27,045 bases of DNA, from NCBI GenBank assembly GCA_018238545.1, contig JABCTC010000046.1:1-27045 (forward strand). The letters run 5' to 3'. Below, in pieces: positions 19,573-21,656 of the stretch (its first letter is position 1; each line of letters starts with the position of its first letter). A model generated the notes under the pieces. That model worked only from the letters and a program-made list of their open reading frames with translations, had not been told where the DNA came from and did not search any database. The DNA is from Candidatus Heimdallarchaeota archaeon. GTDB taxonomy: Archaea; Asgardarchaeota; Heimdallarchaeia; Heimdallarchaeales; Heimdallarchaeaceae. Both the position numbers and the translations under genes were made by a program.

Positions 19573-20451
19573 TTATTCAAGCTTAAATTTCTCATAGTTA
19601 GGATATAATGTGACCATTGCTGCCCCTTTACCTACAGAGTTAACAATTGCAGGAGGAATTTTCCAGACAAAACAATTTTTCACTTGTTTCACTTTTCTTA
19701 CCTCTGCTTCTAGAATTTCAGCTTTATTTCTGTCATTTGCATGAGATATAATTAGATCATATACTATCTCATCTGACATCTTCATTTCTATTTCTTTTAT
19801 TATTTTCTTCAAAGCACCTTTGAATCCTATCCCTCCTCCAAACCCTATAACACCTTCATCTAATGGTATATGATATATCGGTTTTAATTTCAGTGTTCTT
19901 GTTAGTAAAGACATGTGAACACTTTTCTTCACTTTACCAGATTGGAACAATGTCGTGAAATCTTTTGAAAAACCAATTGTGTAAATATGTGGTTTAACTT
20001 CATCAAAATAGCTCTTAATTTCCTCAATACTTTTGTTTTCTTTCAGCATTTTTTGTGCATATAGAACAAAAGCAGCTTGACTAGCTCCTGCATATTGGGT
20101 GGGATAGAATTCGATCTTGATTTTATCTTTCATCTTCTTAGCCGCAAGACGTACAGAGTTAACTTGGTTTGATGTTTTAGGTGTCATAAATGGATAAAAA
20201 ATCGTATCATATTTGTCTTCCTCTGCTTGTTTCAACACAATTGAAGCGTCGTTAGGAGAAGCAAAACTTGTTTTAGGGGCAGGATTAATCAGATGTAGGT
20301 TTTCAGTAAATTCCTCTCTCTCTATCTCTGTTATTTCCTTTTTATACCCCTCTTTGTATTCTACTAATATTTCTAAAAGAGCTATTCTGTGTTCCTCTAA
20401 GTATTCTTTAGGTATAGTTGAGGTTGAATCTGTTAGTATTAATATTTTCAT
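19573..20451 (-). CDS. degV: DegV/FakB family fatty-acid-binding protein
   Basis: ILTDST, PKTS.ASP, L.QSG+V, LKLKPI, IISHAND, VGKGA motifs. Confidence 0.9.
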   Translation of the reverse strand: MKILILTDSTSTIPKEYLEEHRIALLEILVEYKEGYKKEITEIEREEFTENLHLINPAPKTSFASPNDASIVLKQAEEDKYDTIFYPFMTPKTSNQVNSVRLAAKKMKDKIKIEFYPTQYAGASQAAFVLYAQKMLKENKSIEEIKSYFDEVKPHIYTIGFSKDFTTLFQSGKVKKSVHMSLLTRTLKLKPIYHIPLDEGVIGFGGGIGFKGALKKIIKEIEMKMSDEIVYDLIISHANDRNKAEILEAEVRKVKQVKNCFVWKIPPAIVNSVGKGAAMVTLYPNYEKFKLE

Positions 20452-20822: not shown

Positions 20823-20925
20823 TTTTCTCAACAAAGTCTAAAGACTTCGTAAAATATAGTTAACATATAATTTAATGAATACTTTGTAGTAAGTATTATG
20901 CAACTGTTTTACAACTATTAATTAA

Positions 20926-21140
20926 AATAAAGGGGGCATGTGTTCATGTTGAATACATGCCCTATGACATGAATTTTGTACAAATTCTTTAGAAGTGCCT
21001 GAGCACATCATGGGGACGCCACTTACCCTCCTACACCGCCCACAGCTTCTTGCAAAGATGCTTACGGTTCGCTTTGAGGTTTTTGTTGGATGTAGCCCCG
21101 AGGATCACTATGGGACTAGTGCATAGCTACAATCCTTCAA
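20926..21140 (-). ncRNA. candidate structured non-coding RNA, unknown family
   Basis: 76/150 GC over 20991-21140 (hand count) in AT-rich intergenic DNA; five consecutive hairpins; TTTAAATA at 21167-21160; last hairpin followed by a U-rich tail. Confidence 0.6.
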
Positions 21141-21452
21141 CATATGAGCTACACTGGTCTATTTAAACACCAAAAGAATGTACAGAAAGAATGTTATAAT
21201 CTGGATTGAAATCACCATATTACAGGCTCTTAAAAAATCGGAACTTTCAAATTGGAATATGCAGATTTACTTCAAGTTTTTGTTCTTTAAATTCTTGCCA
21301 CTATGTTTTATTTAACATGAGATCTACATCTAACCTTGTTGGCTTTTTTCAGTTTTGCAAATGCATCCTGATTTAGTTAAAAATTAAGAATAAAAAATAA
21401 GAAAAAGTTCTAGATTCTCACCTAGAAAAAATAAAGGTTGTTGAAGTTAGTA

Positions 21453-21656
21453 TTATTCAACAATTGCTACGTTTACAGCTTGTGATCCTCTGTCGGTATC
21501 TTCTAAGTCATAAGTAACTTTTGTCCCTATTTGAAGAGCGTAAAAGTCTCCAGTAACTCCAGAAGAATGGAAAAAGATATCTTTTTCTGCGTCTTCTTCA
21601 TTTTCTATAAAACCATAACCTTTATCGGTCATTACTTTTTTAATAGTTCCTTGCAT
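21453..21656 (-). CDS. csp: cold-shock domain protein
   Basis: RNP1 KGYGFI, RNP2 DIFFH, C-terminal G.QAVNV; SD GAGGA. Confidence 0.95.
   Translation of the reverse strand: MQGTIKKVMTDKGYGFIENEEDAEKDIFFHSSGVTGDFYALQIGTKVTYDLEDTDRGSQAVNVAIVE

Follow-up and report, generated by a model that had tools for sequence, protein, structure and literature searches.

A GC-rich stretch between csp and degV in the genome of a Candidatus Heimdallarchaeota archaeon belongs to a 238-bp dispersed element that is probably a non-autonomous derivative of a TnpB-only insertion sequence, encoding a stand-alone omega-RNA (reRNA) that TnpB would use in trans. Stand-alone omega-RNAs of OMEGA systems were reportedly described by Altae-Tran et al. 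in 2021. The window analysed here, the whole stretch of 27,045 nt, is positions 1–27,045 of contig JABCTC010000046.1 of this genome (G000). The stretch had been proposed to hold an orphan, possibly novel host RNA; a mobile-element end, which the original prediction had itself said would remove that novelty, is what we found, in a repeat present in many copies.

A dispersed repeat with constant limits

Comparison by blastn within the genome and with its relatives places the repeat at window positions 21200 to 20963 on the minus strand, with the same limits in every copy; these are uncertain by 1–3 nt because target and element have (A)TA in common. The unit begins at 21200, 33 nt upstream of the start originally given. 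The predicted GC-rich island is there, at 47–53% GC in 100-nt windows from 20950 to 21100 against 20–33% around it, although the flagged interval as a whole has 44% GC rather than 51%; the spacer minus the element has 27%. The 238 bp contain no ORF. This copy sits between csp and degV, oriented towards degV. Its neighbours are a bacterial-type cold-shock protein in a Heimdall archaeon (CSD, 67 aa, 21453–21656) and one of several DegV paralogues (19573–20451; 5 matches in the same genome).

The genome contains at least 8 copies of the element, and a 301-nt query finds about a dozen matching places there; 20 of the 59 related genomes add many others. Near-full copies by blastn lie on contigs C42 (95% identity), C40 (92%), C109 (85%) and C114 (85%), and on C43 there are a 5′-truncated copy of 155 nt (97%) and, over 171 nt, a match to a diverged copy (82%). 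Halves of the element stand at the ends of contigs C6 and C37, indicating that the repeat breaks the assembly. Dozens of further copies occur in related Candidatus Heimdallarchaeota metagenome-assembled genomes (MAGs), many of them across at least 12 genomes, with sharp, identical ends and unrelated flanks. From these we built an alignment of 48 distinct copies (A1) and a covariance model of the RNA part of the element (R1). The features of the window copy are as follows.

20963–21200, minus strand: whole repeat unit, a protein-less non-autonomous element (blastn; 48 copies aligned; unrelated flanks)
21196–21199, minus strand: TTAT at the left junction, conserved target and likely TAM, followed by an invariant A at 21195 (A1)
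21179–21198, minus strand: TATAACATTCTTTCTGTACA, the left terminal inverted repeat, whose 20 nt are 75% complementary to 20963–20982
21160–21171, minus strand: GGTG-TTTAAATA, a BRE/TATA-like box lying ~25 nt ahead of P1, with TTTAAATA itself at 21167–21160 as predicted
20963–21140, minus strand: predicted omega-RNA scaffold of about 178 nt (R1 matches 21144–20963, 206.8 bits)
21088–21135, minus strand: helix P1, lower part 21135–21125/21097–21088, upper part 21121–21117/21110–21106
21012–21101, minus strand: homology to the final ~90 nt of tnpB ORFs (nhmmer positions 44–137)
21036–21067, minus strand: helix P2, CCG/CGG closing pairs and inner hairpin 21061–21055/21048–21042
20992–21028, minus strand: two conserved hairpins, GGGUAAG..CGUCCCC (21028–21012) and GAUGUGC..GCACUUC (21009–20992)
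20963–20987, minus strand: right end and right inverted repeat, made up of a GAAUU..AAUUC hairpin around TGTACA and of CAUGUCAU(A) after it
20943–20962, minus strand: putative guide position, the 20-nt flank GGGCAUGUAUUCAACAUGAA outside the repeat (known omega-RNA layout; unique in the genome)
20924–20962, minus strand: originally predicted hairpin P5 and TTTATTTT, in unique flank, a possible stop for read-through transcripts (outside all repeat matches)

Ends, target and empty sites

All copies begin after nTTAT with AA(C/G)... and terminate at ...TTTGTACAAAATTCATGTCAT(A), the right end reading ..TGTACAAAATTCATGTCATA. Columns 4–8 of A1 are T41, T46, A46, T48 and A47 of 48, and column 3 is variable. 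The two ends form an inverted repeat of 20–21 nt with 75–86% complementarity, the higher value coming from a repeat search of copy L004 (86% over 21 nt). A hairpin is present at the right end and none was seen at the left end. The right end is near-invariant and its changes are G–U only, so that it offers no covariation evidence; hairpin P4 of the original prediction (GAAUU/AAUUC) is present there, but it never covaries and coincides with the right-end DNA motif.

Two presence/absence pairs show the insertion itself. The site occupied in G016:C99 is empty in G000:C52, and that occupied in G021:C160 is empty in G000:C63. The empty site in C52 reads tcaTTTATAggtact and keeps TTTATA; its occupied counterpart reads tcaTTTATA[..]ATGTCATAggtact (tcaTTTATAGCATG...ATGTCATAggtact), and the second pair reads similarly. 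In neither pair is there a target duplication beyond the shared (A)TA (n = 2; within (A)TA the exact junction is ambiguous). The empty site can be parsed as TA..TA, which with the inverted ends would suit an IS630/Tc1-type MITE and its TA target-site duplication; however, conservation of the flank is confined to the left side, and the homology of the RNA to tnpB points in another direction. The element is thus mobile now or was formerly.

An empty site for the window's own copy was not recovered: in the closest relative, a Candidatus Heimdallarchaeota MAG (G021) whose DegV is 92% identical, the csp–degV spacer has diverged, the contigs end in adapter, and no copy of the element lies at the matching distance from csp. 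The adapter (Illumina, AGATCGGAAGAGCGTCGTGTAGGGAAAGAGTGT...) occupies L103:1–44 (G021:C342) and L101:1–48 (G021:C355), an assembly artefact that makes those contig ends unusable for synteny. Just beyond csp, on its downstream side, the same relative carries about 1.6 kb (L103:248–1867, G021:C342) that is absent at window 21341–21355.

Some copies are orthologous between species, and some show decay. An internally deleted relic of about 100 bp (G000:C45:48222–48324) stands where G010:C139 (L051) has a full copy, and a decaying 5′-truncated copy is common to L029:3604–3652 (G000:C86), L151:1922–2068 (G010:C120) and L016:1501–1644 (G047:C96), each time next to the same gene and followed by the same right flank. 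These three genomes represent two different families (G047 belongs to the other one), and the insertion seems to be older than their split.

A promoter-like box and covarying helices

Upstream of P1, the TATA-like box (GGTGTTTAAATA) is conserved, reading TTTAAATA or TTTATATA in 39 of the 48 copies and preceded by GGTG or GGTA in 38. In full-length elements the GGTGTTTTTATA box that precedes tnpB aligns with it. GGTG-TTTAAATA would be the promoter of the RNA.

The consensus structure, obtained with RNAalifold and inspection, has seven helices and was curated by hand for the covariation test. In the curated structure 97.2% of cells are paired across the 48 copies, against 34–50% when the 3′ partners are slid. 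Changes on both sides of a pair occur in 13 pairs, compared with a shuffle mean of 6.5 (0 of 500 shuffles reaching that number), and in 60 cells compared with 18 in shuffles; one-sided G–C to G–U changes preserve pairing on the minus strand. The secondary structure is therefore conserved, as an omega-RNA requires, with controls far lower. Folding energy is unexceptional (z = −2.1 on either strand for the flagged interval, −1.15 for the RNA part), and support for the structure comes from covariation, not from single-sequence folding.

P1 was found as predicted (21135–21126/21096–21088 with an inner CACUA/UAGUG stem) and shows compensatory changes GC to AU (×8), CG to AU (×21) and CG to UA (×3/×2). 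The inner hairpin of P2 is likewise present, with both-sided changes in 4 of 7 pairs and one U·C mismatch in the window copy, but the outer CCUC/GAGG pairing is not kept across the 48 copies. Nor is the predicted P3 (AAGUG/CACUU); the hairpins GGGGA..UCCCC and GUGC..GCAC are conserved and covary instead, at pairs 187:198 (GC/UA/AU) and 210:216 (CG to UA, ×4). The window copy has mismatches both in P2 and in the GGGUA..CCCC hairpin. P5 (20962–20934) and its U-rich tail exist, but in unique flank outside the repeat.

The RNA has no match in Rfam at the gathering score, with chance-level matches only at E ≤ 10 (SCARNA15, SNORD107), and ARAGORN found no tRNA, in line with the original prediction. 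Given the conservation of the promoter box and the covariation in the helices, a structured, independently promoted ncRNA on the minus strand is plausible; what falls away is its standing as a novel or orphan RNA of the host.

Homology to the 3′ end of tnpB

The omega-RNA of TnpB is encoded by the 3′ end of tnpB together with the right end of the transposon. The element has a 57-nt match to contig C76 of the same genome, inside the 3′ end of a 419-aa ORF (Pfam Cas12f1-like_TNB and OrfB_IS605) whose identity as TnpB is backed by PF07282 and PF01385; a sequence search of TnpB against the PDB gave no match. The genome has 11 full-length TnpB paralogues and many fragments; its TnpB copies retain the ..NADVNAA.. 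RuvC-III motif. An HMM of the RNA part (nhmmer) matches about 24 of these genes or fragments at their 3′ end, over the final ~90 nt. The core of the element also keeps a decayed coding remnant with conserved in-frame stops, KSEP*ASL*EDVGGVGG, which tblastn finds against TnpB residues 388–409 in sister copies.

Matches to R1 fall into two tiers. Mini-element copies score 160–220 bits; the second tier, at 50–61 bits (E 1e-13 to 1e-18), covers positions 1–183 end to end and corresponds to the tnpB 3′ end plus right end in this genome and its relatives, adjoining a TnpB ORF in 6 of 6 checked loci. An omega-RNA, which had been set aside in the original prediction, is thus the best match, collinear with the tnpB 3′ end and right end; by homology the scaffold comes from these parts, tnpB itself having been deleted here. 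Both kinds of element share one order of parts: a hairpin in the ..NADVNAA.. stretch (P1), AAAGCGAnCCG, a hairpin, GGGCGGnGUAGGAGG, two further hairpins, CUAAAGA, the end hairpin and CAUnUCAU(A). Full-length elements also have TTAT at the left junction, ..TCAT at the right junction and the same promoter-like box before tnpB. The shared ends, the box and the homology to the tnpB 3′ end identify the element as a tnpB-deleted derivative. The TnpB clade was found in every genome with full mini-element copies, although this counts for little because the genomes are kin.

No parent element that combines tnpB with precisely this right end was met in the genomes searched. Across 185,579 species genomes the 31-nt end motif has 40 exact matches, every one in a Candidatus Heimdallarchaeota MAG and not one behind a co-oriented tnpB; matches to the left end only or the right end only all lie at contig ends or in short relics. 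Intermediate covariance-model matches (76–95 bits) are gene-less decayed copies only, and copies that blastn matches only from position ~61 are diverged subfamilies with no tnpB link. The RNA also has a second subfamily, diverged and likewise gene-less, at L124:1501–1707 (G018:C71); it scores 95 bits to R1, ends in ..AAATCTCATCATA and lies between unrelated ORFs.

Relation to resident and known elements

The closest resident relatives are TnpB-only (IS1341-type) elements such as G000:C76:203–1462 and about 10 full-length paralogues, which have the same junctions and box, the same blocks AAAGCGAnCCG and GGUAGGAGG, and the same hairpin order. They differ in their lower scores to R1, in an end motif of TTGTCTT/AAGACAA where the mini-element has TGTACA, and in a P1 that is a short hairpin within the RuvC-III coding stretch. 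Its 3′ half and extended P1 set the mini-element scaffold apart from the tnpB-linked scaffolds of the genome, so that recognition of it by a resident TnpB is putative only. The TnpB-only elements, which have no internal transposase gene, form a large expansion in this genome, with TnpBs of 410–425 aa and 22 matches at E ≤ 1e-60 (C76, C8, C73, C43, C63, C82, C62, C48, C119 and others).

Among known systems the element most resembles PATE-like derivatives of IS200/IS605. Like these, it has no ORF, many copies, conserved left and right ends with variable flanks, scarless insertion 3′ of a short T-rich motif (seen in two empty sites only), a scaffold collinear with the tnpB 3′ end and right end, a flank as putative guide, and tnpB genes elsewhere in the genome. 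Unlike them, it has an archaeal host and a TATA-type box fused directly to the scaffold, and its ends are 20-bp imperfect inverted repeats around a shared AT/TA rather than subterminal hairpins at both ends without terminal inverted repeats. Nor was a tnpB-bearing twin with the same right end found.

A Y1 transposase (PF01797) was found neither in the genome (92% complete) nor in any of the 24 genomes of the genus, so that no Y1 TnpA with matching ends was found that could act in trans. Canonical IS605 elements occur in sister genera only (L148, L149 and L150, at G024:C8, G028:C94 and G024:C4), with TTAC...TCAA ends, a 140-aa Y1 TnpA and a ~420-aa ORF of TnpB length, so called by length alone; the tnpB 3′ end of these elements gave no match to R1. 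IS607 elements with a serine-recombinase TnpA and TnpB are present in the genome itself, and their integration at a shared core dinucleotide would fit the AT of the target and both ends; their own ends (ACTGTAAGC.../...ACGTGTGT), however, are unrelated to those of the mini-element. Two such 2.75-kb IS607-type elements lie at G000:C71:11420–16006 and C82:16739–21325, with ends ACTGT.../...ACGTGTGT, and the genome has 7 resolvase-domain matches. A dimeric recombinase, too, would be compatible with inverted ends and with an AT present in the target as well as at the ends. Since no transposase with matching ends was found, we do not assign a mobiliser: the element would work like a PATE, and strict membership of the IS200/IS605 PATEs is not established.

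A proposed mode of action

The proposed working of the element follows by analogy with IS200/IS605–IS607 TnpB systems. Nearly the entire tnpB ORF would have been lost, so that only a left end carrying the TATA-type box, the final ~90 nt of the ORF and the right end are left, and this deletion would have brought the promoter directly ahead of the omega-RNA scaffold. Transcription would then run through the scaffold into the flank, whose first ~16–20 nt (from 20962 downward, GGGCAUGUAUUC...) would serve as the guide. The layout is consistent with this: a sharp right end is followed by unique flank, and TTAT(A) marks the left junction and is seen in the empty site too. TnpB from full-length elements elsewhere in the genome may bind the RNA in trans, and the complex may cut the element's own empty site, TTAT(A) plus flank, whereupon recombination would restore the copy. 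In the IS200/IS605 model the omega-RNA guide is the DNA just past the right end, TnpB cleavage of the TAM-flanked empty site leads to the element being copied back, and PATE-like elements without an ORF often encode omega RNAs that require TnpB in trans (Meers et al., PMC10055086).

Alternative explanations

The RNA-like folds of a mobile mini-element might instead be relics or DNA transposition signals, the remains of a dead omega-RNA in a MITE. The right-end hairpin and inverted ends, which never covary and are DNA-level features, would fit such a reading, as would the missing partner tnpB with the same right end, the visible decay of several copies and the ordinary folding energy. We nevertheless think it unlikely, given that internal helices far from the ends stay paired through the 60 double changes, that the G–U pairs work on the minus strand only, that most copies keep the promoter box, and that the conserved single-stranded blocks AAAGCGAACCGUAAGC and GUAGGAGG are common to tnpB-linked scaffolds. 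An unrecognised enzyme or pathway, host-encoded or TnpB-dependent, could also move the mini-elements and the TnpB-only elements that share their TTAT/TCAT, AT-centred inverted ends, in a genus where neither a Y1 nor a matching serine transposase was found; scattered over the genome, the mini-elements would then supply a single TnpB clade with guides in trans. This we rate as quite unlikely.

A family of host small RNAs that has multiplied with no transposon link, whether H/ACA-like, the option named in the original prediction, or another guide or regulator, is very improbable. The window copy does resemble an archaeal H/ACA sRNA in having a hairpin with an internal loop followed by (A)ACA, and its own TATA box and lack of an Rfam match would agree; but ACA follows P1 in only 30 of the 48 copies, the others having ACG, AUA or AAA, and no K-turn is evident on inspection. 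Such a family would also have to account for sharp transposon-like ends, a TTAT target, inverted repeats, empty sites, homology to the tnpB 3′ end and assemblies that break inside the element. There is equally little to be expected of a domesticated, TldR-like use, in which the guide would direct a (dead) TnpB to a host promoter such as that of degV or csp. Apart from the position of the copy between these genes, pointing towards degV, the data speak against it: guide candidates of 12–20 nt match only their own flank in the genome, the closest relative has no copy at the corresponding distance from csp, and the TnpB copies keep their RuvC-III motif.

Discussion

The preferred reading, a tnpB-deleted element whose omega-RNA would serve TnpB in trans, places this RNA among things already known: it is a well-conserved stand-alone omega-RNA mini-transposon and not a new class of RNA. 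A false lead to a new ncRNA is thereby removed, and in its place stands a well-defined archaeal example of a stand-alone omega-RNA element, for which 48 copies are aligned, a covariance model is available, and both the ends and empty sites are defined. The movement of these TnpB-type elements where no matching transposase was found is of wider interest. As the repeat breaks assemblies, its description is useful for annotating Asgard MAGs, and it can guide the choice of TnpB/omega-RNA pairs.
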